Notes: generated by a model not told the origin, from the letters alone. Counted from the first letter of the stretch, positions 1,770 to 54,914 are shown. The stretch: DNA of 64,000 nt from an uncultured Gammaproteobacteria bacterium (GCA_964613815.1 CAZTKG010000002.1:23737-87736); one strand, 5' to 3'. Numbers and translations: made by a program.

Positions 1770-4700
1770 ATGAGTAAGCCTTATGATCGTCAGAAGAGTC
1801 GTTTATTTGCTCGATCGGAGATCGAGAGAGGTATTCTTGATAGGCGAGATGAGCGACATGATGAGTTTTTGGAGGCTAAAGGCATGACGGAGAAGGAGTT
1901 GCAAGATGAGCGGGTTCGACAGGATTGGTATTCTGGGATTGGTATCCATCTTCCTAATATTTCTCGGGATGAGCGATGGGGTCTTTCTGATGAAGTAGAT
2001 CATGTTTTTTCGTTAAGCGGCAATGGAGCGGAAGAGTTTATTCATCAAGCTTTGCGTGATCGTGACCATGAGTTAGCTTCTTGTATCGCTGTCCAGGTTT
2101 CGAATGTACGTATTCCAATGGGTTTGTATCGTCTTGGTTTGAGGTCGACCTTTTCGGATATAAAGGTTTTGGATGGGTACGTCCGGCAAGAGTATTCAAA
2201 GCAAGATTTGAAGGATGGCGCTGAGGGTTTTCAGGATTTGTCATTAAAAGCTCGCGGGGATGAGATGGCTACAATTTTTGCTAAATGGTTTTCTGAACGG
2301 ATGTATTCTGTTGATTTGCATGATAAGGCATTGGCCTACGAAAGGGGTTCACATGTCGTAGATTTGAAGTCCCATAACCGGAATTTTTTGCGTCGTGCAT
2401 TGCGGGATCAGGACGCTTCTTCTTGTGATTTTTTTTGTCAGACTGTTTTGTTTGAGATGCCCGTTCAAGTTCGAGAAGATTTTTTTAAATTTTCCATGGA
2501 TGCGGAGATTGCTTTACGGCTCTTTAGTTCCCCCGCGCTTACTCAGCGATTATTTGATGGGGGAGATGTTCGAAGTGTATTAAAACGTGCTTTTGTTGAG
2601 AGGGTTGAGGATTGGAGATTTGCTGATGAGGAGGGGGGGCAGTTAGGTGATGCGGAAAAAGCTTTTTTGTCTACTTTGGATGAAGATGACTTAATAAACT
2701 CGCCGAGCTTTATTAAAAGCATTTTAGATAGCGGGCTTTTTGCGGGGGAGGAGGAGTTCTTGACATTTTTTGATTTTGATTCATCGTTTTTCCGTCGTGT
2801 TGAAGGGGGTTTGTTTCATGATGATATCTCGGTAATTGATAGGATTCGGCTTGCGCGAATGTTGCCTAGTTTAAATTGGATGGGTATCTCCGCTGTTTTG
2901 GAGGAGGCAGGTATTGCGGTTGCAGATCGGATCCCTGAAGAACAACTTGAATATTTACAACGTGTCGTTTCTTTTGGGCAGAATGTTGATCGAGAGATTT
3001 TTTTGGCGAGAAGTGAGTTTAGCATTAGTCCGTTTCAAGCTGAAGTTTTGAAGAGCGATTTCCCCGCAGCTTTTTTGCGGGATGGTCGTGGGAGACTTGA
3101 TTATGATCTTATCGCGGATCACTTGAGATTTGATGTGAGTCATTATGGTAGGGTTGAGGATTTGTCGATGGAGGATGAAGAGGGGGAGGTTTACGAATCT
3201 GATAATCAAATTTGGTTTGCGCGCATGAGAGAATTGTTTGGTGCTGAGATTGCGATTAAGTATGGTAATCGTCTTGGGCTTTCTGTGCATGATGCTTATT
3301 TTGCCGTTGATTCCATCATTGCTTTACAGGCACTCAGTGGTGAAACTCCAGATCGATTTGGGCAGAATATTTTGTTGCAAGTTGCAAAAGATGGGCAGGT
3401 TTATCGGTCGGGATTTGCACAGCATGAATTAAATGCTATCTCGCAGTTACTTGAGGGGAGGGACTTGAATCAGCTATTGGAGCAGGCCAAGGCTTTTTCT
3501 GCAATTGATGTTTTACAAACATGGGTTCGTGGCGTTGAGCGTGATCCATCGCGTCCGTTTTCTAGTTGGAAGGGGCTCCGGAACTATGCATCCATGGTTC
3601 GTTTGCTTGATCGGTCGGATTTTTTAACCGAGCTGCAGCATGAGACCGATCCTCGAAAACGTGTTTATTTTGAACGATTGATTTTGCATGAAAACGTTGA
3701 TACTGGAAAGGTTTTGATGTTTCGAGAAGATCCGGCTGCATTTTTGGATATTGATGATGGTCATACGGATGCCGAGGTGAATAAGGTTAAAAAGCCGTCA
3801 AATTATCTTTCGTTGCCGTTTTTGGGTCTTGATGGCAAGGATATGCGAGATGCGCTCATTGGGGGTTCTCTTGATAAGATTCAGACGTTACCTCCGATGG
3901 AGAGGGAGTATAGGCTTTATGATTCGCCTGAGAATGATCCGAGCATTCCTCGTGTTTTGCATCGGTTTATACAGGAAGCTGTTGGTAAGCGACGATTTGG
4001 TATACCGGGAAAGGCTAAGCATCCCGGGAAGGTATTTTCTCGTATTCAGCGATGGTGTAAGAGGGAGGGGGTTCGATGGAGGAATGTTTGGCAGGATCCT
4101 GTTGGATTGATGCAGCTTTCTCATGAGCAGCGCGAGGCGCTAGAGGAGATTGTTTTTGATGATGACATTGGCTTGTTGCGGCCAAATGGGGAGGTCTACC
4201 GGATGAAGCTTGGAGCGAAGAGTGATCCTGAAATGGTCATCGCAGGTAACGATACGGCAAGTTGCATGCCTTTTGGGTCAGGTAAGAATAATGTATACAT
4301 GTTTAATCCCAATTGTGCTCAAATCGTGCTTGAGCGAAAGAATGCGGAAGGGGAGTGGCGTACTGTGGCTCAATCTGTTGTCAATATTGATATGGAGACC
4401 GAGATGGATGTTCCTGCGATATTGGGTGCGTATAAACGTCAGGGGCATATTAATGATGTTGTTGCGGCGACGGATTTTGGGAATAGAGAGGTGATTGCAT
4501 GCGACAATATTGAGGTGGCGAAAAATGCGCAAGGGAAGGCTTCGACATTCATTTCTGAAGCCTATCGGCGTTTTATGACGGATTATTTGGATGTGCATGC
4601 GGAGGGTCTTGAGGTTGATGCGACTCGGGTTGTTGTTGGGAAGGGGTATACGCCTGCTGCACTTGGTTTTGATCAGATTGATAATCATTTTATTCCGCAG

Positions 4701-5348
4701 GCCCCAATGGGATATTCGGATAACTCTGGTGAAAAGTGTTTTGTTTTGGAGACTGGATTGGCGGAATGTGAGGCTCCTGTGCGGAAAGGGGTTTCTCGTA
4801 TGACGACGCGTGATGCTATCGCTGTTACCTCTATTGAGGGGAAGGCTTATGCTGACAATGCATCTCTTTTGGAGAATTTGCATGGCATGCAGAATAATAT
4901 TATTGGGATGGAAATTGCGAATGCGTATTTTGAGCGGCCGAATTTGTCGTTCATGTATCGGAATACGCGCGGGATTCCTCAGGGGTATATTCTTGCGTAT
5001 GAGGGGCGTACGAAAGATGGGGTTCGGCAGGTGTATATTTCTGATTTGGCTGCACGGCCGGGTAGCCGTTTAGCTGGAGGGAAGTTGATTCGGGAGTTTT
5101 TTGAGAGTTATTTAGGCGCTTATCAAGAGGGTGATGAAGATATGCTTCCGATTTTTACGAATGCTCGTGGAAAGACGAGTTATCAGATTTTGACTAGGCA
5201 GTTTGAGCGAATGGCAACGAAGGTTGGGCTTGTTGCGGAGATGGATGTTGTTGGCCAGCGGAATGAGGGAGGTGATGAATTTTTTGATGTGCGGGTTTAT
5301 CTTGGGAGGGATGCAGAGGAGGTTGAGAGGCAGAGGGCTAAGTTTTAG
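1770..5348 (+). CDS. large (1192 aa) hypothetical cytoplasmic protein, no recognised domain; possible GNAT-like fold at the C-terminus
   Basis: Uninterrupted 3.6 kb ORF with no TM segments. The C-terminal ~150 aa (VYISDLAARPGSRLAGGKLIREF) weakly resembles an acyl-CoA N-acyltransferase motif A. Confidence 0.8.
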   Translation: MSKPYDRQKSRLFARSEIERGILDRRDERHDEFLEAKGMTEKELQDERVRQDWYSGIGIHLPNISRDERWGLSDEVDHVFSLSGNGAEEFIHQALRDRDHELASCIAVQVSNVRIPMGLYRLGLRSTFSDIKVLDGYVRQEYSKQDLKDGAEGFQDLSLKARGDEMATIFAKWFSERMYSVDLHDKALAYERGSHVVDLKSHNRNFLRRALRDQDASSCDFFCQTVLFEMPVQVREDFFKFSMDAEIALRLFSSPALTQRLFDGGDVRSVLKRAFVERVEDWRFADEEGGQLGDAEKAFLSTLDEDDLINSPSFIKSILDSGLFAGEEEFLTFFDFDSSFFRRVEGGLFHDDISVIDRIRLARMLPSLNWMGISAVLEEAGIAVADRIPEEQLEYLQRVVSFGQNVDREIFLARSEFSISPFQAEVLKSDFPAAFLRDGRGRLDYDLIADHLRFDVSHYGRVEDLSMEDEEGEVYESDNQIWFARMRELFGAEIAIKYGNRLGLSVHDAYFAVDSIIALQALSGETPDRFGQNILLQVAKDGQVYRSGFAQHELNAISQLLEGRDLNQLLEQAKAFSAIDVLQTWVRGVERDPSRPFSSWKGLRNYASMVRLLDRSDFLTELQHETDPRKRVYFERLILHENVDTGKVLMFREDPAAFLDIDDGHTDAEVNKVKKPSNYLSLPFLGLDGKDMRDALIGGSLDKIQTLPPMEREYRLYDSPENDPSIPRVLHRFIQEAVGKRRFGIPGKAKHPGKVFSRIQRWCKREGVRWRNVWQDPVGLMQLSHEQREALEEIVFDDDIGLLRPNGEVYRMKLGAKSDPEMVIAGNDTASCMPFGSGKNNVYMFNPNCAQIVLERKNAEGEWRTVAQSVVNIDMETEMDVPAILGAYKRQGHINDVVAATDFGNREVIACDNIEVAKNAQGKASTFISEAYRRFMTDYLDVHAEGLEVDATRVVVGKGYTPAALGFDQIDNHFIPQAPMGYSDNSGEKCFVLETGLAECEAPVRKGVSRMTTRDAIAVTSIEGKAYADNASLLENLHGMQNNIIGMEIANAYFERPNLSFMYRNTRGIPQGYILAYEGRTKDGVRQVYISDLAARPGSRLAGGKLIREFFESYLGAYQEGDEDMLPIFTNARGKTSYQILTRQFERMATKVGLVAEMDVVGQRNEGGDEFFDVRVYLGRDAEEVERQRAKF

Positions 5349-30744: not shown

Positions 30745-30770
30745 GTCACGTCGCTCGCGAGCGACGTGAC
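30745..30770. promoter_or_regulatory. 26-bp perfect GC-rich palindrome (gtcacgtcgctcgcgagcgacgtgac) upstream of the giant-protein locus
   Basis: Perfect dyad symmetry ~65 nt upstream of ATG 30835. Could be an operator or an RNA hairpin; no T-run. Confidence 0.4.
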
Positions 30771-30802
30771 GTGGATATCTTGTCGGACACATTGTTTGTT
30801 CG

Positions 30803-30811
30803 TGATAAAAT
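30803..30811 (+). promoter_or_regulatory. candidate extended -10 element (TGaTAAAAT) for the giant-protein operon
   Basis: TGn + TAAAAT, 24 nt upstream of ATG 30835. RBS AGGGA at 30825-30829. Confidence 0.25.
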
Positions 30812-30834: not shown

Positions 30835-32631
30835 ATGCTATTACAACGATTGAATCTAGCGATTCAGGTGACTGCGACGATTGTGGTTGTTTTTGCGTTT
30901 TTGTTTGGGTTTGGCGATGTTGTGTTGGCGCAGGATTTGGATGCTGTTGGAGATGCTGCAGGGCTTTCTGATGCGGGGCTTGAAGTCATCATTGGACGGA
31001 TTATCGCTGTCTTCTTAGGACTCTTGGGGATCATTCTTCTTGTGATTATCATGTATGCCGGGTATTTGTGGATGACGGCAGGAGGAAATACGGATCAAGT
31101 AGTGAAGGCGAAGAAATGGATTATTAATGGGGTGGTTGGACTTGTGATTACGTTGAGTGCGTATGTGATCGCTTCATTCATTATGAATCTTTTCTACGAT
31201 GCAGGCCTTTGGGGAGGTGGTGGCGACGGGCCGGATTCGAATCCTCCCGTTTTGGAGCCGGGATCCAACTCTCTTGGGAGTGGAGGTATTCAATCGCATT
31301 ATCCGGATCGGTATGCGACGGATATTGCTCGAAATGCGAAGGTGATGGTGACGTTTGGTACTAAGATGGCAATTGGTTCGTTTGCGAAGGGATACGATGA
31401 TAATGGGACACCTACAGATGTTAGCGACGATGTTGTTGCGACAGCGCTCAATACAGAAAATATTTTGATTTATGTTACAAGTGAAGGGGAGGAGTATGCT
31501 TTGGGTGAGGGTGATGTAGAGGTATCGTTTACGGAAGATCTGAGGACGTTTGTCTTTGACCCTTCTGCGTATTTAGGAAGTGCTACGGAGGATGTTGGGT
31601 ATACGGTGTATCTTTCTGATGATATTGAGAATTCGGATGGGGATACGGGGGATGTTGATGATGGTGGGTATTGGTGGACGTTTACGGTGGGGACTGAGAT
31701 TGATTTGACGCCTCCGCAGATTAAAAGTATTTCGCCTGCAGAGGGGCTTTCGTATGCTCGGAATATTGTTGTTGAGGTAACGTTTGATGAGGCGATTGAT
31801 CCAACAAGTGCGACGGGGACGTATGCTGCTGATGGATCTGGGAGTTTTGAAAATATTCAGATTGAAGCGGATTCTAGTGGGCTTGTGGAAGGGACGTATG
31901 TGATGAGTAATGCGTACAAAACGGTTACTTTTGTGAGTTCGGAGGCTTGTGGAACAAATAGTTGCGGGCAGACGATTTATTGTTTACCTGGTGGGGAGGA
32001 TCAGACGGTTACGGTGTTTGGTGCCACGCCTGGAACGGATAACCCTCAGATTGATGTATATCCATACGATGGAATTGGAGATGTTTCTGGCAATGCGCTT
32101 GATGCGGATGGGGACGACGCGGTTGATAGCGCTGGAGAACAATATGCTTGGGCGTTTACGACGACGAATGATTATAATGATGATGCTCCATACATCACGG
32201 CGGTTACCCCGGATGTTGCTGAGGAGGATTTGGCATTAGATGCAGATATTCTTGTGACGTTTGACTCTGTCATGATGAGTTCTACGCTTTCGAGTGAGAA
32301 CGTGGAGGTTGATAATAGTCCTGATCACGAGCTTTGGTTTTCGATTGAAAGTGAAGGGTTGGCGAGTGATGGAAGTGTTGTAGAGGATTCGAGTACGACG
32401 ATTACGAATACGCAGATGGAAGTTAACCATGGGGTGTTCTATGAGTCTGGAGATGATTTTACCTATCTGTATTCGGTTGATGTGGGTGACGGAGTTTTGA
32501 ATCAGTATCAGAATTGTTTTGTTCCTGGGGAGGGGCCTGGAGTTGGAAGTACTGAATGTGGCACAAATAATACGTATCCTTACTGCTGCCAGGGGGTTCC
32601 AAGCGCTGAGGAATGTTCGTTTTTTGAGTAA
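30835..32631 (+). CDS. secreted/surface protein (598 aa) with pilin-like N-terminal module, Ig-like beta-rich middle and Cys-rich C-terminus
   Basis: Signal peptide (cleavage VLA|QDLDAV). The mature N-terminus has two hydrophobic helices separated by MTAGGNTDQVVKAKKW. The rest is acidic and G/T/S/D-rich, ending in a Cys cluster (CGTNNTYPYCCQG...EEC). Confidence 0.85.
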   Translation: MLLQRLNLAIQVTATIVVVFAFLFGFGDVVLAQDLDAVGDAAGLSDAGLEVIIGRIIAVFLGLLGIILLVIIMYAGYLWMTAGGNTDQVVKAKKWIINGVVGLVITLSAYVIASFIMNLFYDAGLWGGGGDGPDSNPPVLEPGSNSLGSGGIQSHYPDRYATDIARNAKVMVTFGTKMAIGSFAKGYDDNGTPTDVSDDVVATALNTENILIYVTSEGEEYALGEGDVEVSFTEDLRTFVFDPSAYLGSATEDVGYTVYLSDDIENSDGDTGDVDDGGYWWTFTVGTEIDLTPPQIKSISPAEGLSYARNIVVEVTFDEAIDPTSATGTYAADGSGSFENIQIEADSSGLVEGTYVMSNAYKTVTFVSSEACGTNSCGQTIYCLPGGEDQTVTVFGATPGTDNPQIDVYPYDGIGDVSGNALDADGDDAVDSAGEQYAWAFTTTNDYNDDAPYITAVTPDVAEEDLALDADILVTFDSVMMSSTLSSENVEVDNSPDHELWFSIESEGLASDGSVVEDSSTTITNTQMEVNHGVFYESGDDFTYLYSVDVGDGVLNQYQNCFVPGEGPGVGSTECGTNNTYPYCCQGVPSAEECSFFE

Positions 32632-32633
32632 TT

Positions 32634-35600
32634 ATGAGATTTAAGGAGTGGTTACAATTTGGATTTCGATGGTTACCGATGGTTGCTGTTTTTGGCTTTT
32701 TGTTGTGTGGCGAGGTGGCATTTGCACAGGATCTTGATGCGGTTGCGACTGAGTCTGGGCTTGGACAGGCGGATTTGTATGCGACGCTTGCTCGGATTGT
32801 TAATGTCTTTTTAGGATTCCTGGGAATCATTTTGGTTTGTATTGTTGTTTATGCGGGATTTTTGTGGATGACGGCAGGGGGGAACACCGAGCAAATCACG
32901 AAGGCAAAAAAATGGGTTATCAATGCTTCAGTTGGATTATTGATTATTTTATCTTCTTGGGGTATTACGACATTTATTTTGAATAAATTGATGGGTGCGG
33001 CGGGATATACGAGTGATGGTTCCGGAGATGATGGAGGGGGGGGATCTGGTGGAGGAATTCCTGGAGGTGATGTTGCGACATTTAGGGTGAATGATTTTAG
33101 TCCTGAAGGGGAGGTTTCTATTCGTAATATTGAAGTTACCATTACATTTAATGACAAGCTTGATCCTGATTCGATTGATGGGAATGTCGTTGTGACGGAT
33201 TTGGATTCTGGAGATACGGTGGATGGGACGTTAGAAGTGAGTGCGAATAAGGTGACTTTTACGCCTTTGGCCACTTGTGATGAGCCGAATGAAGATTATA
33301 ATTGTTTTGATGAATTTACGAATTACAGCGTTGCGGTTTCGACGAGTGTTTTGGATGATGATGGAACGAGTTTGAGTTGTTCAATTTATCCTTGTACGGC
33401 TGAATTTACAAGTGGGGATGTTGTTGATACGGACGGACCTGAGGTTGAGTTTGTTTATCCTGAGAGCGGGGAGCGAATTGAGCCTTACACATCTGTGTTT
33501 GAACAGGTGTATGCCGAGGATGACTATGCGCTTTCTGGTGCAGAATTTGCGATTGATGATGAGACTGATGTGTTAGAAGCTGTGAGCGTGGATGATAATG
33601 CATCGAGTGCGTATATAGAGACGTATTGGGATACGACGGATTACGATACGGAGAGTTACTATCGGTTATATGCGACGGTGACGGATTTGGCCGGGAATGA
33701 GAATACGGATTCTGTACGTGTGTATATTGATCCTGCACATTGCTATAATGACGTGATGGATGAGGATGAGGAAGATGTTGATTGTGGAGGGAGTTGTGGG
33801 GCCTGTGATGGAGATGAGTGTTCAGAAGATGGAGACTGTGCGAGCGGGTCATGCGTTGATAATGTTTGTGTTGCTGAGCCGATGATTTCGTCGATTAGTC
33901 CTGAGGATGGGGCCGTGGGCACGCTCGTGACAATTAATGGAGAGAATTTTGGATCGCGAACTGGGACGGTTTATTTTGAGGACGGTGATGGTGCGTTGTT
34001 GGAGGCTGGGACTTCTGCGATTTGCGGGGATAGTTGGGATGATGATGAGATTGTGATTGAGGTTCCGGAGGGGGCTGCGGATGGGGCGATTACGGTTGTT
34101 GCGACGAATGGATATGATGACGCAACGAATGATGATAGGGGTCCTGTGATTGATGATTTTGAGGTAAATAGTGTTGAGCGGCCTGGTATTTGTCGGATTT
34201 ATCCGGATGATGGGGAGAGTGGAGATGAAGCGACGGTGTATGGGGTGAATTTTACGAGTGAAGCAGACATGAGTGTTTACTTTGGCACTGATGAGGTGCG
34301 TACGTTTGGAGATTGGGATTCTGACTCCGTTGTTGTGACAGTGCCTTCGCTTGAAGATGGGGATTATGATGTGATGGTTGATGTTGATGGGGTTGAGTCT
34401 AATACGGTTGAGTATGTGGTTGAGGCATCTGTGGAAGATGGGCCTATTTTAAGCGGACTTTCTCCTTCGAATGGAGGAATTGGTCAATATGTGACGTTGC
34501 AGGGGTCTGATTTTGGAAGTACTCAGGGGCTCGTATGGATTGTGAGTCAGAGTACTGGAAATGCTGCGTATGCTTCGGTTGCGTTTCCGGATGAGTGTGG
34601 GGTGGATTTTTGGTCTGACGATGAGGTTATTGTGAAGATTCCTTCTGAATATACGAATGGGCAAGCAATTGAGTATACGACGCATGATGTGTATGTAGAT
34701 GCGGCGTATTTGGATGAGGATTCGAATGCTCTTGATTTTACGATTACGACAAGTGATCCGAGTCCAGGGCTTTGTGCGCTCAGTCCGGATGAGGGAGATG
34801 TTGCGGCTGACAGTGGGCTTCAAGTGACGCTTTATGGTGAGAATTTTGGGTCTGATGTTGGGTCTGTTCGGTTTTACAATGAGGTTGAGGCTGCGGTGGA
34901 CTCATGGAGTGAGGGAGAGGTGGTAGTGACTGCTCCTAGTTCTGCTTTGACAGGGCCCGTGACACTGTATTCTGCGGATGATGATGAAAGTAATACCGTG
35001 AATTTTGAGGTTGGTGAAGGAGATTCTGATGATGAAGAAGAGGCGACTGAGGGGGGATATGCTTGGTATTTTTCGACTGGAGATATTCCAGATTCTCCTA
35101 GTGTGCTTGTGGAATGTACGGACACTTCTGTAAGTGGCGTGCCGAATAGTCGATTTTTGAGTGATGAGGGCGCTTGTTTGAATGCGGATGTGTTTGTGCG
35201 TTTTGCGAGTAGTGTGTACGAGTCGACTGTTCAGGATGGAGAGGGAATTCTTGTGGAAGAATGTAGCGATTCTAGCTGCGATGATGTTGTCGCGACCGTT
35301 CCTGGATCGGTGACTTTGGCTTGGGGCCGTGCGTTGACGTGGTCCGTGGATGGGGGTTATGAATCTGGACTGTTCAAGGCTGATACGTCGTATCAGGTAA
35401 CGATTTTGAGTACGGTTGTTTCCACGGATGGTGTTGAGCTTGGGAGTGATGTGTCTTGGAAATTTAGCACAGGGGCTGCGGATATGGATTGCGCGATTGA
35501 GAAGATTTATGTCACGCCTGAAACGGCAGATGCAGATTCGTATGGACAGGACCAGGAATTTTTGTCAAGCGCTGGAACGTTTGACTGTCAGGTGCTCAGT

Positions 35601-38600
35601 TCTGATTCGTTTGATTGGGATTGGCAGATTGATGAGTCTTATGCCTCTATATCTGCTGGAGGGTGCGATACGATGAGTGGTCAGGAGTGTGCGCTCGCGA
35701 CAGCACTTGCGGAAGGCGAGGCTGATGTCCTTGTGACAGAAAGTGATAGCGGTCTTTCTGAAGGCGCTTTGTATCGGATTGATTTTAGTGATCCTGCAGT
35801 GAGTGATTGGTGGCCGAGTTGTGATGAGGCTTGTACGAATGCGGATGTCGGCGCTTCGTTTGATACATCGATTAACATGGACAGTAGTCGAGGTATGACC
35901 GCAGAAGATGCTGGTGCGTTCATGGTGTATGCGTGTGATAATGAGCTGTGCAGTTCTTATTCAGATTTGTTTGCTTCTAGTGCGACGTGTACGGATTATG
36001 CGGATGATGGAGGGTGTGTTGAGTTGTCTGCGAATTTTCTTGATCGAATGGACAGCGCGACGTTTTATCGTGCAACGATTTCAGGGAATTTGATTTCGAC
36101 GAGCGGGGTTGCGATTATTGGGACGAATTACGGCGACGATTTTAGCTGGACGTTTGGTGTGCGGGATGATGCGAGTGAATGTAGTGTTGATTCGATTGAC
36201 TTGTCTCCAGGAGATTCAAAGCATACGTATATTGGTAGCCGGGAGGTGTTTAGTGTGAATGCGTATGGTCCACGAGATGGATGTAGCACGACTGGACAGA
36301 AGCTTGTTTCTAGTGATTATGATTGGGACTGGGATGATCCGATTGAGAATGATGCCGATGTTTCTGAATGGGTGAAAGTGAATAGTAGCTTGATTGATGC
36401 GGATGCAGATGGGCCTGTTGAAGGCTGTACGTCTTCGTGTTTGCCTCAGGGGACGTCTACGTATGATGCAATTTGTGGAGATGGTGTCATTGGAGTTGCT
36501 GAAGATTGTGATGACGGAAATGCAAGTGATGGGGATGGATGCAGTTCGATTTGTTTGCGTGAAGGAGGGGATGTTGTTGGAACTTGTGGAGATGGAAGTT
36601 TGGATCGTGTTGCAGCGGATGGGGTTTATGATCAAGGGGGTGGAGAGGATTGTGATGATGGTGGCAATTCTGATGGAGATGGATGTAGCTCTGCTTGTTT
36701 GAACGAGGGCTCTTCTGGTACGACTCAATGTGGTAATGATGACATTGCTTATGATTGGCAGATTGGAGGGGAGGAGTGTGAGGATGCTGATGGAAATGCG
36801 AGTGGGGGTGATGGGTGTAGTGCGAATTGTTTGAATGAGGGTTCTGTTGCGATTACGGATGTTTATGGGGAGTGTGGAGATGGTGTGCTTGATACGCCGT
36901 ATGAGAGTTGTGATGATGGAAATACATCGGACGGGGATGGATGCGGCTCTACGTGTGTTCGAGAGGGAGGTGATGTTGTTGGGATTTGTGGGGATGGAAA
37001 CGTGGACCGCATTGCTGATGATGGGACGTATGCGCAAGGGGGAGGTGAAGACTGTGATGATGACGAGGGATGTAGTGATGATTGTTTGTGGCTTGGCTCT
37101 TCTTACAACTATGACGACGTTTCTGTTTGTGGCGATGGGGTGACGGGGGCTGGAGAGTATGACATGTGTGAATCTGGTGTACTTGGTGATCTTTCTGTTG
37201 ATAGTCTGCAGGTGGCGGAAATTTCGGATTTGGCGCCAACTCAGGTCGATAGCGCGACAAATATTTCAACATCAACTGTTCGAGTTGAGCTTGATGCGTA
37301 TGGGCTCTGGGATGAGACAGAGATGATTTTGTATTGCGGTGCAGAGACGGGGGCTGATTGTGAGGATACGACGTATGGCGTTGGTGAAAGTGGGTGTTGT
37401 AGTGCTCGTCCGACCGTGTCTTTGTATCCGTCTGGATCTGCCGTTTGTACGAATACGGCGTTTAGCGCTACGTTTAGTGAGAAGATTGATGTAGATACGC
37501 TTGAGGATCATGTGTTTGTGCGGCTTGATATTTCTAGTGCTTCTGATGGTGCGTGTCCGAGCAGTCATGATGTGTATGGGGATTCTGCGAGTGATGGATC
37601 TGTCGCGACTGGTTGGGATCGTTTTTGGGCATTTTTGATGCCTTGGACGAATGCGGCGAGTGATGGGGATTGTTTGATGGAGGTGACTGGATTTGATCAA
37701 ACGGCAGTTAGTGATACGGAGTATAAGGTCTCCATTACAACGGCATCTATATTGGAGGCTGAAGCGGATTATGAGCTTGTGGTGGTTGGTGATTCTGATG
37801 TTTTGGATGGAGATAAAGAGGGGGTTTTGAGTGCGCTTGGAGTGAGTATTGATGGGACAGCTTCTGGCACCGGAGAGATTGCGCAGGCGTTTACAACTGG
37901 GGAAGGAATTTGTTTGTTTGATATGGCGGTTGCGGAAGATACGGATGAAGATAGTCCTGGGTATTATCGAACGCAAAAAGAGTCGCATGGATTTTTGGCG
38001 ACGGCTTATTCTGTTGATGGAGGGGTTCAACAGGAGATTCAGTCCATGACTGGGGTGTATGAATGGTCATGGAGCGATTGGACTGTTGACGATGAAGATG
38101 TTTTTGAGATCGCGAGTACTGATGATGAGGCGGATGTTTCCGCGCTTGATGAGGATGGTGAGGCTAATGTGGTCGCGAGTGCCGTCATTACGGTGGATGC
38201 GACGGATGTTGATGAGGTTGGGCGTGTCGTTTCTGGAACAGAGGATGTCACCGCGGTGCTTTGTAATAACATTTGGCCTGTTATTGATGATTTCCCGTTT
38301 GTTGATGATTCTACATCTGCGATTAGTGGGGTTTCTGAAGGGTATGGCTGGATGAATTTTTCTACCTATTATTGTCGAGATGCGGGAAGTTCAGACAGTC
38401 GAGATGATGATTTGCCTGAACTTGAGGTTCTTGTAACGCCTTCTGTTGAATCTGAGACGGTCATGAAGGAATACTTTTTCCAGGTTCAGGATGGTTCTGG
38501 AGATGCAATTGGTGTTCGTATTGCCTCGAATGAGGAATATTTGACTCCGTTGGCTTGGTATGAGGATCGTGGATTTAGCGGATCGCCTTCTGAGCTTCAG

Positions 38601-53096: not shown

Positions 53097-54914
53097 ATGT
53101 CTGATGAGAAATTTTTGCCGAGTTTTGATCATTGTGGTGGGAGGTTTCACAAGGCGGTGATTTTGATCGCGGCGGCTGTTTCGTTGGCGGCGATGATTGC
53201 GCTTTTGGCGGTTTTGATTTTTGATGAAGGTGATGATTATGAGGAGGTCGTGATTGAGGATGGGGGGATGAGTGAGGAGGTCGTTGTTGATGAGGGTGAT
53301 GGCGCTTACGTCACGGTTATGGATGATGAGATTGAGATTGTTGTCGATTGGATTCCTTTGGATGAGCAGCGGGAAGTGACGATGAATCAGGTATTTTTGG
53401 AAATGGTTTATGCGAAGGATTTGGAGAATATAGAAGCGGGGCGAGGAGATACGTTTTCGGCTTCAACGTTTCATCTTGGGAGTGTCGCAGGAGGCGATTA
53501 TGATGGGTGGTCGTTCCAATTTATCGAAACGGCTTCATTGGGTATGGGCACGTATTATGGAGCGCATTATATTTTGGCGGATCCTACAAGCGGGGCCTTG
53601 GTTTGGCTTGGGAATTATGATCGAAGTATGGTTTCGATGTTTACTTCGCCTCTTTCGACTTATACCGAGCGAGATGCAACGTATTATGAAGATTTTGTTT
53701 CTGATTGGGCGGTCGTGTTTTCGAATGCCGTTGTTGATGAGTTGGAATTTGAGGATTTGATTTTTGAGGATGGTACTCCTCTTGTTGTTCGTGGTGGGTC
53801 TCATCATGTGCTTTATGAGCAGAGTTTTCTTCCGGCTGATGGGGAGGTGATGTATCTTGAGGATGGTTCTGAGATTATGTATAACCCGCAAACGGAAGGG
53901 GATGATAAGACGTCCGAAGATTTTTATTTCTATCGTGTTCGAGAGGATGGGATTGTTGTTTGGTATGACATGGAGGTGCCGTTTTGGGATTATGAAGCGA
54001 GATATGAGGCGGGGAGGGTTCCGGCTGTTACGTGGGGGGATGGGTCTGTGAATACCGCGTCTTATTTACGGGGGGTTCCGGGAGGTTGTGGAACGAGGAG
54101 CGATATTCATTTGATTGATGATGAGGACATTCCTGAGCTTGTTGCCGCTGGAACATTTGTTGATTTTGATGGTTCTGAAGGGGTGGTGTATGAGCACGCG
54201 GCGTATGACGAAGAAAATCAGTCGTATAATTTCCGTATGTGGCAAATTGTTTATCCTGATGCGAGTTGGGAGGAGTTTGTCGTTTCTCATCCGTCGTTTT
54301 ACTATGAAGATTCTCTTGGTCGCTGGAATCTGTTTACAAGTGTGAATATTGCTCCTGCGGCCGAATGTGGGAAGCCCGTGATTTATTTGTATCCTGAAGA
54401 GCCGACGGAGATGTTGGTTGAGGTTTTCCCGAAGGGTGGGTTTACGTTTACGGAGCCAGATTATGGAGATGGGTGGAATGTCATGGCTTATCCTGATGGG
54501 ACGGTTGTTGATTTGCGGGATGGAGAGGAGTATCCGTATCTTTTTTGGGAAGGGCGTGGGGGGATGTATGCGGAGCCTGAGCATTATTGGGCTGTGCCGC
54601 AGCAGCGTGTTGGATCGTTTTTGTGGTATTCGTTGCATCATTTAGGACTTAATGATCAAGAGTCGCTTGATTTTATGGAATTTTGGTTGCCTCGCATGGA
54701 GGATGCGGAGTGGTATAAGATTGGATTCCATGGGACGGAGGTGATGGATGTGCTTGCGCCGCTGAACATCAGTGAGGAGCCGGATATGGTTTGGCGGATT
54801 TTGATGGATTTTGAGGAGCTTGATGAGGAGATTCCGAGTAATCCGATGGAATGGCCGGATGTTCCGGAGCGAGAAGGGTTTACTGTGATTGAGTGGGGAG
54901 GGGTGATTCAGTAA
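53097..54914 (+). CDS. hypothetical membrane-anchored protein (605 aa)
   Basis: N-terminal TM (AVILIAAAVSLAAMIALLAVLIF), then a large acidic extracytoplasmic domain. No recognised family. Confidence 0.7.
   Translation: MSDEKFLPSFDHCGGRFHKAVILIAAAVSLAAMIALLAVLIFDEGDDYEEVVIEDGGMSEEVVVDEGDGAYVTVMDDEIEIVVDWIPLDEQREVTMNQVFLEMVYAKDLENIEAGRGDTFSASTFHLGSVAGGDYDGWSFQFIETASLGMGTYYGAHYILADPTSGALVWLGNYDRSMVSMFTSPLSTYTERDATYYEDFVSDWAVVFSNAVVDELEFEDLIFEDGTPLVVRGGSHHVLYEQSFLPADGEVMYLEDGSEIMYNPQTEGDDKTSEDFYFYRVREDGIVVWYDMEVPFWDYEARYEAGRVPAVTWGDGSVNTASYLRGVPGGCGTRSDIHLIDDEDIPELVAAGTFVDFDGSEGVVYEHAAYDEENQSYNFRMWQIVYPDASWEEFVVSHPSFYYEDSLGRWNLFTSVNIAPAAECGKPVIYLYPEEPTEMLVEVFPKGGFTFTEPDYGDGWNVMAYPDGTVVDLRDGEEYPYLFWEGRGGMYAEPEHYWAVPQQRVGSFLWYSLHHLGLNDQESLDFMEFWLPRMEDAEWYKIGFHGTEVMDVLAPLNISEEPDMVWRILMDFEELDEEIPSNPMEWPDVPEREGFTVIEWGGVIQ

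Follow-up and report, generated by a model that had tools for sequence, protein, structure and literature searches.

Two neighbouring genes on a Patescibacteria-type chromosome encode predicted surface proteins that begin with the same VirB2-like pilin module and then run on into large ectodomains. They lie, co-oriented, in a stretch of 64,000 nucleotides filed under an uncultured Gammaproteobacteria bacterium (GCA_964613815.1 CAZTKG010000002.1:23737-87736), which was analysed at its full length and is called the window here; coordinates are counted from its first letter. Open reading frame (ORF) A (30835..32631, + strand) specifies a medium-sized protein of 598 amino acids (aa) and ORF B (32634..42620, + strand) a giant one of 3328 aa, both established by reading of the frames and by Pfam matches. 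At the level of sequence comparison, the homology of the module to the Patescibacteria family of VirB2-like pilins is secure, and a remoter link to the classical VirB2/TrbC pilins is plausible and moderately supported. The data are best explained by a conserved cassette of surface proteins in Patescibacteria of the class ABY1, which consists of A, B and small single-pass proteins with TSP3 repeats and has A and B as its core. As to what the cassette does, we lean, at slightly less than even weight, towards a membrane-resident lateral assembly of the pilin type that would mount A and B as a calcium-dependent surface adhesin. An earlier note, made from the sequence alone, had assigned the shared module to 30835-33060 (the end coordinate being residue 142 of ORF B) on two proteins that it called giant, a description that suits ORF B and does not suit ORF A.

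Sequence and topology of the N-terminal module

In both proteins a hydrophobic leader is followed by a short amphipathic helix, transmembrane (TM) helix 1 (...FLGxLGIIL...YAGxLWM), a loop (TAGGNTxQxxKAKKW), TM helix 2 (INxxVGLxIxLS...) and a glycine-rich linker. This layout, which the earlier note had described, is found at the positions it gave in the sequence, in the hydropathy profile and in AlphaFold2 (AF2) models alike. BLASTP aligns the two N-termini over residues 16-118 with 60/103 identities (58%, E 3e-34); the next-best segment, within an Ig-like domain, is 23% identical, and the rest of the proteins barely aligns. The hydropathy profile contains three hydrophobic segments at exactly the positions of the leader, TM1 and TM2. 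AF2 folds the isolated module of ORF B into a hairpin of helices 46-80 and 85-122 with a predicted local distance difference test (pLDDT) score of ~88, and in the full ORF A model, where the helices span residues 49-80 and 86-122, the module has a pLDDT of 82-93. A profile of the two modules, run against the window translated in six frames, recovered these two copies and no other (next match at E ~1).

The predicted Sec signal peptide of ORF A covers residues 1-32 (30835..30930, +) and would end at VLA|Q, as judged from sequence, hydropathy and alignment with pilin leaders. The VirB2-like pilin core, with TM1, the loop TAGGNTDQVVKAKKW and TM2, occupies residues 48-116 (30976..31182, +), and is followed by a Gly-rich disordered linker at residues 123-136 (31201..31242, +; pLDDT <50), which is the least conserved block of the ORF A family. 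The predicted signal peptide of ORF B comprises residues 1-31 (32634..32726, +) and would end at AFA|Q; an alternative start is available at M16, and the ENA and JGI gene calls place the start there, 15 codons later. The pilin core of ORF B (residues 48-115; 32775..32978, +), delimited by PF18895 and the AF2 hairpin, leads into a linker rich in Gly and Asp at approximately residues 122-147 (32997..33074, +), recognized from its sequence and a pLDDT of 55-66. Leader cleavage after VLA in A and after AFA in B is predicted from the motif and from the alignment with stand-alone pilins. Of the site AxA|QDLDAV proposed earlier for both proteins, QDLDAV is indeed common to the two and alanine stands at both -3 and -1 in B, while A has valine and alanine at these positions. 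The basic KAKKW cluster sits between the helices, in proteins with just 2-3% K+R overall. By the positive-inside rule this loop would be cytoplasmic, and the conserved cysteines and the domain types of the C-terminal region would place that region outside.

Relationship of the module to pilin families

The T4SS_pilin family of Pfam (PF18895; T4SS, type IV secretion system) has a cut-off of 26.6 bits, which is exceeded by ORF A (34.1 bits) and ORF B (35.9 bits), and by the isolated modules (37.8 and 39.4 bits). When the isolated ORF B module was used in a database search, 40/40 relatives were stand-alone PF18895 proteins of 117-154 aa with 37-54% identity. An alignment of 42 sequences, consisting of fusion modules and small stand-alone pilins, was then matched to Pfam: PF18895 was found in 42/42 and TrbC/VirB2 (PF04956) in 12/42 at E<=0.01 (best 2.9e-6), the other matches being scattered generic membrane families. 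Residues G64, G75, M79, T80, G83, A91, G101 and L102 (ORF B numbering) are invariant in fusion modules and small pilins, and the signature YAGFLWMTAGG...AK...NA.IGL.I is common to the A-type, B-type and stand-alone forms. The stand-alone pilins end 5-20 residues past helix 2, exactly where ORF A and ORF B run on into the linker. The near-identity of the loop in A and B had been taken earlier as the mark of a functional domain, and this is borne out by 118 ORF A orthologues, in which, as in the stand-alone pilins, the same residues (G, G, M-T, G-G, A, G-L) are invariant or near-invariant. A and B possess the Sec leader, the two TM helices and the short basic loop of PF18895, as seen by hydropathy, AF2 and alignment, with the cleavage predicted. 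They do not share the size of the stand-alone proteins (~110-150 aa, ending soon after helix 2), and at 598 and 3328 aa they are therefore domain members of PF18895 rather than typical members of the family.

The next family after PF18895 is PF04956, which the A and B modules match end to end at 15.4-19.7 bits, sub-threshold against a cut-off of 27.9; the match of the ORF B module to TrbC (E 0.001) is likewise sub-threshold. In a profile-profile comparison with hhalign, the 42-sequence alignment was set against five proteins annotated as VirB2/TrbC, one of them the T-pilin of PDB 8cue, and gave a probability of 42% and a P of 2.6e-4 over 55 columns, a result based on five similar sequences because tblastn in a plasmid collection reached only VirB2 of Rhizobiales and Acetobacteraceae. 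The two sets align in register at the leader end and mature N-terminus, helix 1, the W-M turn, the basic loop residue and helix 2, the Patescibacteria loop being 8 residues longer than that of VirB2/TrbC. With PF18895 above its cut-off, TrbC sub-threshold and the hhalign alignment in register, the VirB2/TrbC-type pilin reading of the earlier note is supported. A sequence-profile search of the PDB with the 42-sequence alignment yielded no match even at E<=10. The Mbov_0395 family of Mycoplasma integrative and conjugative elements (NF045849) also comprises small two-helix pilin-like proteins of a monoderm T4SS, and the modules align to its positions 12-78 and 16-78 of 80; they score 25.8 and 28.2 bits, short of the cut-off of 40, and so are not members of it.

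At 50% identity the whole family comprises 73,343 representatives (E<=1e-3), and it includes single polypeptides of 2-17 tandem hairpins. Examples are P0168 (552 aa, 6 modules) and P0209 (1775 aa, 17 modules), besides many others; in P0168, the sole multi-hairpin protein that was read whole, the signal peptide is confined to the first unit. Poly-pilins of this kind would be either polytopic membrane proteins or covalently linked pilus subunits. A further candidate, namely a generic signal-anchor shared by unrelated secreted proteins, which the earlier note had held out as the finding that would undo its pilin reading, was rejected, as the best 150 of the 73,343 representatives are only stand-alone pilin-type, tandem, A-type (including fragments) and B-type proteins.

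The ectodomains

Residues 137-598 of ORF A (31243..32628, +) form three tandem Ig-like beta domains of the Big_5 type (48.3 bits in Pfam) with 8 invariant Cys, which fit an extracytoplasmic location. The AF2 model of the whole protein has a mean pLDDT of 89.6 and a predicted template modelling score of 0.76, and the pLDDT of the ectodomain is mostly >95. The ectodomain of ORF B (33075..42617, +) contains 152 Cys, 20% D+E and 3% K+R. Its recognizable domains are a Big_5 domain at residues 156-247 (42.4 bits), four TIG/IPT domains at ~417-800 (TIG 94.1 bits), a sub-threshold Big_5-like domain at ~848-946, Cys-rich DUF4215/myxo_disulf repeats at ~1275-1400, 2285 and 2560, and, near the C-terminus, a weak VWA-like region at ~2881-2996 (19.5 vs 23.8 bits, sub-threshold). 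Both A and B therefore carry tandem domains of the Ig-like/TIG kind found in surface adhesins, from which a binding role is predicted.

The same domains may also be read in structural terms, namely as an S-layer-like or wall-spanning lattice in which A and B, with calcium-binding TSP3 proteins, would be envelope scaffold and not adhesins. Consistent with this, the ORF A ectodomain is strongly conserved over its full length, the proteins are extremely acidic and accompanied by Ca-binding repeats, and the genes are syntenic with those of a LytR-CpsA-Psr protein, signal peptidase, hisS and ftsA/ftsZ. In addition, Foldseek ranks an S-layer protein, SbsC, as the best match of the ORF A model and lists another, EA1, as well. 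These matches are, however, generic Ig-like chains with TM-scores of 0.10-0.18, listed along with BIg domains of L,D-transpeptidases, cadherins and titin, and the fold search with the whole ORF A model provided only such chains and no functional clue. Furthermore, a single fibrous protein of 3328 aa is a form met more often in adhesins than in lattice subunits, and we regard a scaffold of this kind as very improbable.

Conservation of the pair

The ORF A family has at least 358 homologues of ~600 aa and ~50% identity at 90% clustering. The best 120 are all 555-650 aa long and 45-63% identical over their full length, all but one being annotated with both PF18895 and Big_5; those to which a source gives a name are termed 'Ig-like domain-containing protein', 'pilin' or 'hypothetical' and come from Uhrbacteria, Parcubacteria or Patescibacteria. 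Conservation is even along ORF A, with identity to the reference, per 20-residue block, of ~0.6 in the module and ~0.5-0.6 in the ectodomain. Orthologues of ORF B are collinear and 36-47% identical over ~3000 aa. In three other genomes a member of the A family is directly followed by a same-module protein of 3103-3465 aa and, where the contig continues, by a TSP3 protein; the order lepB-hisS-yqeY is retained in two of the three.

A scan of species-representative genomes returned 585 stretches with relatives of the motif GFLWMT[AS][GTQ]G, and the counts given here refer to the best 78 loci. At 74/78, a module protein of 500-970 aa stands immediately before a second one that is 1200-3480 aa long or cut by the contig end; 63 loci could be cleanly classed as A+B, and 4/78 are arrays of 4-12 short pilin genes. 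Two sub-architectures are recognized. The first, as in the window, consists of ~600 aa plus ~3000 aa followed by small TSP3 proteins, and the second of ~890 aa plus ~1900 aa followed by a third large ORF. Loci of the second kind are L024-L026, L036, L037, L040, L041, L045, L047, L050, L055-L057, L059, L061, L070, L080 and L086; in most of them the third ORF has 600-1230 aa and a hydrophobic segment with no detectable pilin module, and three (L037, L057, L080) are named Falkowbacteria or Paceibacterota. Named carriers of the pair are Uhrbacteria, Magasanikbacteria, Falkowbacteria, GW2011_GWC2_42_12 and SG8_24, all of which Table S1 of PMC12102498 (the first three as Uhr-, Magasanik- and Falkowbacteria) puts in the GTDB class ABY1; from these named relatives we infer ABY1 as the source class. 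Many pair-carrying metagenome-assembled genomes (MAGs) are titled 'uncultured Gammaproteobacteria bacterium' (L011-L013, L022, L024, L026, L028, L030 and others), and others Kapaibacterium (L010) or Binatia (L027). These MAGs are probably mislabelled or contaminated bins, because the content of their loci matches that of MAGs labelled Patescibacteria.

Identity between modules is 60.0% for A and B within a genome, 52.5% for A and B of different genomes, 53.9% for A with A and 56.4% for B with B. Such figures bear on whether the hairpin does anything more than hold the protein in the membrane. Were it a passive anchor derived from a pilin, its conservation would stem from the demands of membrane insertion and of intramolecular helix packing, and no partner would be involved. 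Motifs of small residues (G, A) are usual wherever TM helices pack closely into a hairpin, hairpin and ectodomain are uncoupled by the flexible linker, the downstream proteins of the cassette have ordinary single TM anchors, and no machinery is encoded nearby in the window or in four other genomes. From a passive anchor one would nevertheless expect conserved hydrophobicity, and not a loop and turn motif of 15 residues that is identical in three protein forms; moreover, the module is conserved on a par with the ectodomain, and within one genome the A and B modules co-vary. We therefore consider a purely passive role improbable. Packing or recognition by the hairpin is favoured because stand-alone, A-type and B-type forms all show one and the same turn and loop signature, because the module is conserved as much as the ectodomain, and because the similarity of A and B within a genome (60.0%) exceeds that of the other comparisons (52.5-56.4%).

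Relation to type IV secretion machinery

The earlier note had suggested a search for VirB4-, VirB6- and VirD4-like partners. Neither these nor any other T4SS Pfam family occurs in the 64-kb window, and in four other genomes the 10 kb around the pair contain no T4SS genes. Nor is the pair part of a tandem pilin array, the sole 'array' being A and B themselves. ABY1 T4SS loci usually lie near comF, recG and radA (PMC12102498), none of which is in the window. VirB4 is listed as present in the pair-carrying GW2011_GWC2_42_12 (L033) and SG8_24 (L069) (Table S1, PMC12102498); this co-occurrence is weak evidence, because VirB4 is found in most genomes of that dataset.

The closest stand-alone PF18895 arrays consist of 4-12 tandem genes directly downstream of an SBP_bac_1 gene at 7/7 loci (L017, L079, L081, L083, L091, L092 and L093; for example L091:6494-11395). 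In L091-L093, for which the neighbours were fully annotated, an NTP_transferase (sugar-nucleotidyl-transferase) gene precedes the SBP gene, and no VirB4 occurs within 10 kb of the arrays at the seven loci. The SBP_bac_1-pilin array is a conserved cassette. As both the pair and the nearest stand-alone arrays are located away from T4SS genes, caution is needed in reading every PF18895 match as T4SS.

These data bear directly on a second role for the hairpins, which we judge possible but doubtful. A and B could be pilus-mounted adhesins, their hairpins being minor or tip pilins that a T4SS encoded elsewhere extracts from the membrane and builds into a VirB2-like pilus. Inserted first they would stand at the tip, or else they would be sparse along the shaft, so that stalk and fibril are displayed far from the cell, in place of a VirB5-type tip adhesin, for which these monoderm systems are almost without a reported homologue. 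The modules retain the full signature of the stand-alone pilins, as such a role would require. In VirB2-type pilins, both termini are on the same outer side, as in T- and F-pilins, and by analogy a C-terminal fusion would be topologically allowed. Patescibacteria T4SS clusters, unlike other monoderm systems, have essential VirB2-like pilins according to published work, and a 2025 survey found no PrgB-like adhesin in Patescibacteria and refers to VirB5 only in the case of one genome with a diderm-type mating-pair formation system (MPF-T). The two pair-carrying genomes with reported VirB4 (L033 and L069; PMC12102498) also agree with this role, although VirB4 occurs in most Patescibacteria and its co-occurrence is hardly informative. 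Several observations speak against it: the pair never adjoins T4SS genes in the five genomes inspected, the closest stand-alone relatives adjoin NTP_transferase/SBP_bac_1 and not virB4 at 7/7 loci, and an appendage of 3200 residues is impossible on every subunit of a tightly packed filament. In addition, the literature searched contains no imaged pilus of the family and speaks only of a 'potential to elaborate conjugative pili'. In its most specific form the proposal is unlikely: A and B, as covalent fusions of pilin and adhesin, would nucleate or cap the VirB2-like T4SS pilus of monoderm Patescibacteria and would fill in this class the role that VirB5 has in diderms. If true, the pilus subunits of these ultra-small epibionts would themselves carry the means of host recognition, with the conserved 600-aa protein as the adaptor that joins the pilus to the giant fibril.

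A proposed membrane-resident adhesin assembly

In the assembly that we tentatively favour, each protein would leave the cytoplasm through Sec, and signal peptidase would remove its leader by a cut after VLA or AFA. The mature protein would be kept in the cytoplasmic membrane by the two-TM hairpin, a true homologue of the stand-alone Patescibacteria pilins (PF18895), with the KAKKW loop turned toward the cytoplasm and helix 2 emerging outward into the flexible Gly-rich linker and the ectodomain. The ectodomain of A would be a rigid stalk of three Ig-like domains, and that of B would comprise ~3200 residues with Ig-like, TIG, Cys-rich and possibly VWA domains. The hairpin would serve as a pilin-type packing module, lying side by side in the membrane with the hairpin of the partner and possibly with free pilins, and in this manner the stalk A and the long fibril B may be mounted together as a cell-bound, Ca2+-dependent adhesin for cell contact. 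Lateral packing within the membrane is plausible for the family because polypeptides with 2-17 tandem hairpins exist. Of this picture, the sequence, the predicted topology, the family membership, the conserved pair and the domain content are shown; the cleavage, the orientation, the association of hairpin with hairpin and the adhesive role are steps that we infer.

Several points weigh against this assembly. If the modules were incorporated into a filament built by a T4SS, this would account just as well for the conserved pilin signature. The excess of A-B similarity within genomes is modest, and gene conversion or genome-specific amino-acid usage could account for it. Fold searches on the hairpin, which do not discriminate for so simple a helical structure, gave no specific support. 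The adhesive role is predicted from domain types in the sequence (Ig-like, TIG, TSP3 and a weak VWA), and the high conservation seen in the ORF A ectodomain is unusual among adhesins that bind hosts, so that a component of the cell itself may be bound instead.

Locus and neighbouring genes

The window belongs to a chromosome of Patescibacteria type, and almost all of the ORFs scanned in it are housekeeping genes. They include recO, an asnS/aspS-type tRNA ligase, scpA/B, parA/parB, relA/spoT, topA, a Mur ligase, dprA, pth, der, genes for a LytR-CpsA-Psr protein and signal peptidase I, hisS, yqeY, ybeY, dagK, ftsA, ftsZ, nrdR, pyruvate kinase, RNase III and a sigma-70 factor. Between yqeY and ybeY stand ORF A and ORF B, and the spacing is tight, with 2 nt from the stop of ORF A to the start of ORF B and 4 nt from ORF B to the next gene.

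Three consecutive, closely packed genes (42625-45334), all for single-pass membrane proteins with very acidic ectodomains, follow ORF B. The first (42625..43506, +; 293 aa) has one TM segment by hydropathy, at residues 28-46, and a TSP3 Ca-binding repeat (TSP3_bac, 29.7 bits); its counterpart is also placed after the giant gene in other genomes. The second (43542..44294, +; 250 aa) carries TSP3 repeats (TSP3_bac, 55.2 bits) and a TM segment at residues 111-129, and the third (44300..45334, +; 344 aa) a TM segment at residues 78-96 and a weak TSP3-type repeat (TSP_3, E 0.0012, sub-threshold).

Upstream of ORF A, the 150-nt spacer that separates it from yqeY contains a 26-nt perfect palindrome, GTCACGTCGCTCGCGAGCGACGTGAC (30745..30770), which occurs once in the window, with 0 occurrences expected by chance. 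It was found only in loci of the same species and is not conserved outside it; it may be an operator or an RNA hairpin, and its membership of the cassette is uncertain. A promoter-like site, CGGACA-16-TAAAAT with TG (30784..30811, +), 24 nt before the start of ORF A, is recognized solely by its resemblance to the consensus, and chance alone would give as many sites of this kind in the region.

Some further features of the window were recorded. The GC skew on the + strand is very strongly positive (~+0.2 to +0.5) over positions 1-58000, even at 18-28 kb where the genes are on the - strand, and falls to ~0 only at 58-62 kb; an unusual disparity of strand composition has reportedly been seen in a Microgenomates genome (PMC7143001). 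An ORF of 1192 aa at 1770-5348 has no Pfam or NCBIfam match and no predicted TM segment, and other unannotated ORFs are found at 53097-54914 (605 aa, one TM, 20% acidic), 60480-61547 (- strand, 17 Cys) and 61664-62941. Loci of the same species from different samples differ in a segment ~7-10 kb upstream of ORF A, which lies upstream of the conserved pth/lepB region. In L001:1-3453 and L004:1-4222 this segment holds small ORFs (37-237 aa) without Pfam match; L002 and L003 have topA, the Mur ligase and dprA instead, and in L004 pth, der and LytR are also replaced.

Comparison with known systems and significance

The pilin family, its arrays and the Pfam domain are known, and the architecture described here is real and widespread without being a categorically new system. 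VirB2-like pilins of Patescibacteria have been published, as have their tandem arrays (2-11 pilin genes in the 2025 survey) and the essential array in the T4SS cluster of Southlakia epibionticum. The stand-alone PF18895 pilins resemble A and B in family, leader, amphipathic helix, TM1, WMTAGG turn, basic loop and TM2 (37-54% identity), as well as in the occurrence of tandem paralogues. They differ in being ~110-150 aa long, whereas in A and B helix 2 leads on into ectodomains of 460 and 3200 residues; in the genomes inspected, moreover, the A/B pair is located outside T4SS clusters and pilin arrays.

The leader of Agrobacterium tumefaciens VirB2 is cut before Gln, a cut that is predicted in the present case as well. 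TrbC, VirB2 and TraA (PF04956; T-pilus PDB 8cue and 8exh) share with A and B a basic-loop hairpin of two helices. Unlike the modules of A and B, which match PF04956 sub-threshold (15-20 vs 27.9 bits) and have no sequence match in the PDB, they have a loop shorter by 8 residues, and they belong to the T4SS of diderms, whereas the organism here is a monoderm. Since the C-terminus of A and B is not free, head-to-tail cyclisation of the kind seen in T-pilin and RP4 TrbC is presumably impossible.

Type IV minor or initiator pilins such as TcpB and CofB (type IVb) carry extra C-terminal domains, and VirB5 is the tip protein of T4SS pili. On general grounds these may be functional analogues of A and B if the latter are mounted on a pilus, in that a pilin-type module or tip subunit bears an adhesive or initiating domain. 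There is, however, no relation in sequence or fold; type IV pilins are built with one N-terminal helix and a site for prepilin peptidase, and VirB5 is without a TM hairpin. Giant adhesins with Ig-like, TIG and VWA domains share with A and B the Big_5, TIG and DUF4215 domains, an acidic and Cys-rich composition and Ca-binding repeats. Such adhesins are usually anchored by sortase through LPXTG, by a retention module of the type I secretion system, by a lipobox or by a single TM segment, and to our knowledge none has been reported with a VirB2-like hairpin as its anchor. The Pam pili of candidate phyla radiation (CPR) bacteria were considered as a relative and rejected, as they are built of Sec-secreted Ig-like subunits joined by donor-strand exchange; the paper on them mentions no relation to VirB2 or T4SS (bioRxiv 10.64898/2026.03.03.709456).

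The literature searched makes no mention of PF18895 fused to large ectodomains or of the conserved A-B pair. We know of no earlier case in which a VirB2-type hairpin is the anchoring or assembly module of large ectodomains. The finding is of interest for the host contact of Patescibacteria and for the biology of T4SS pili. The Patescibacteria T4SS, of which VirB2-like pilins are a recently recognized peculiarity, is indispensable to epibiotic life in the only organism tested. The operon offers a concrete and testable link between this pilin family and cell-surface contact in the large uncultured class ABY1.

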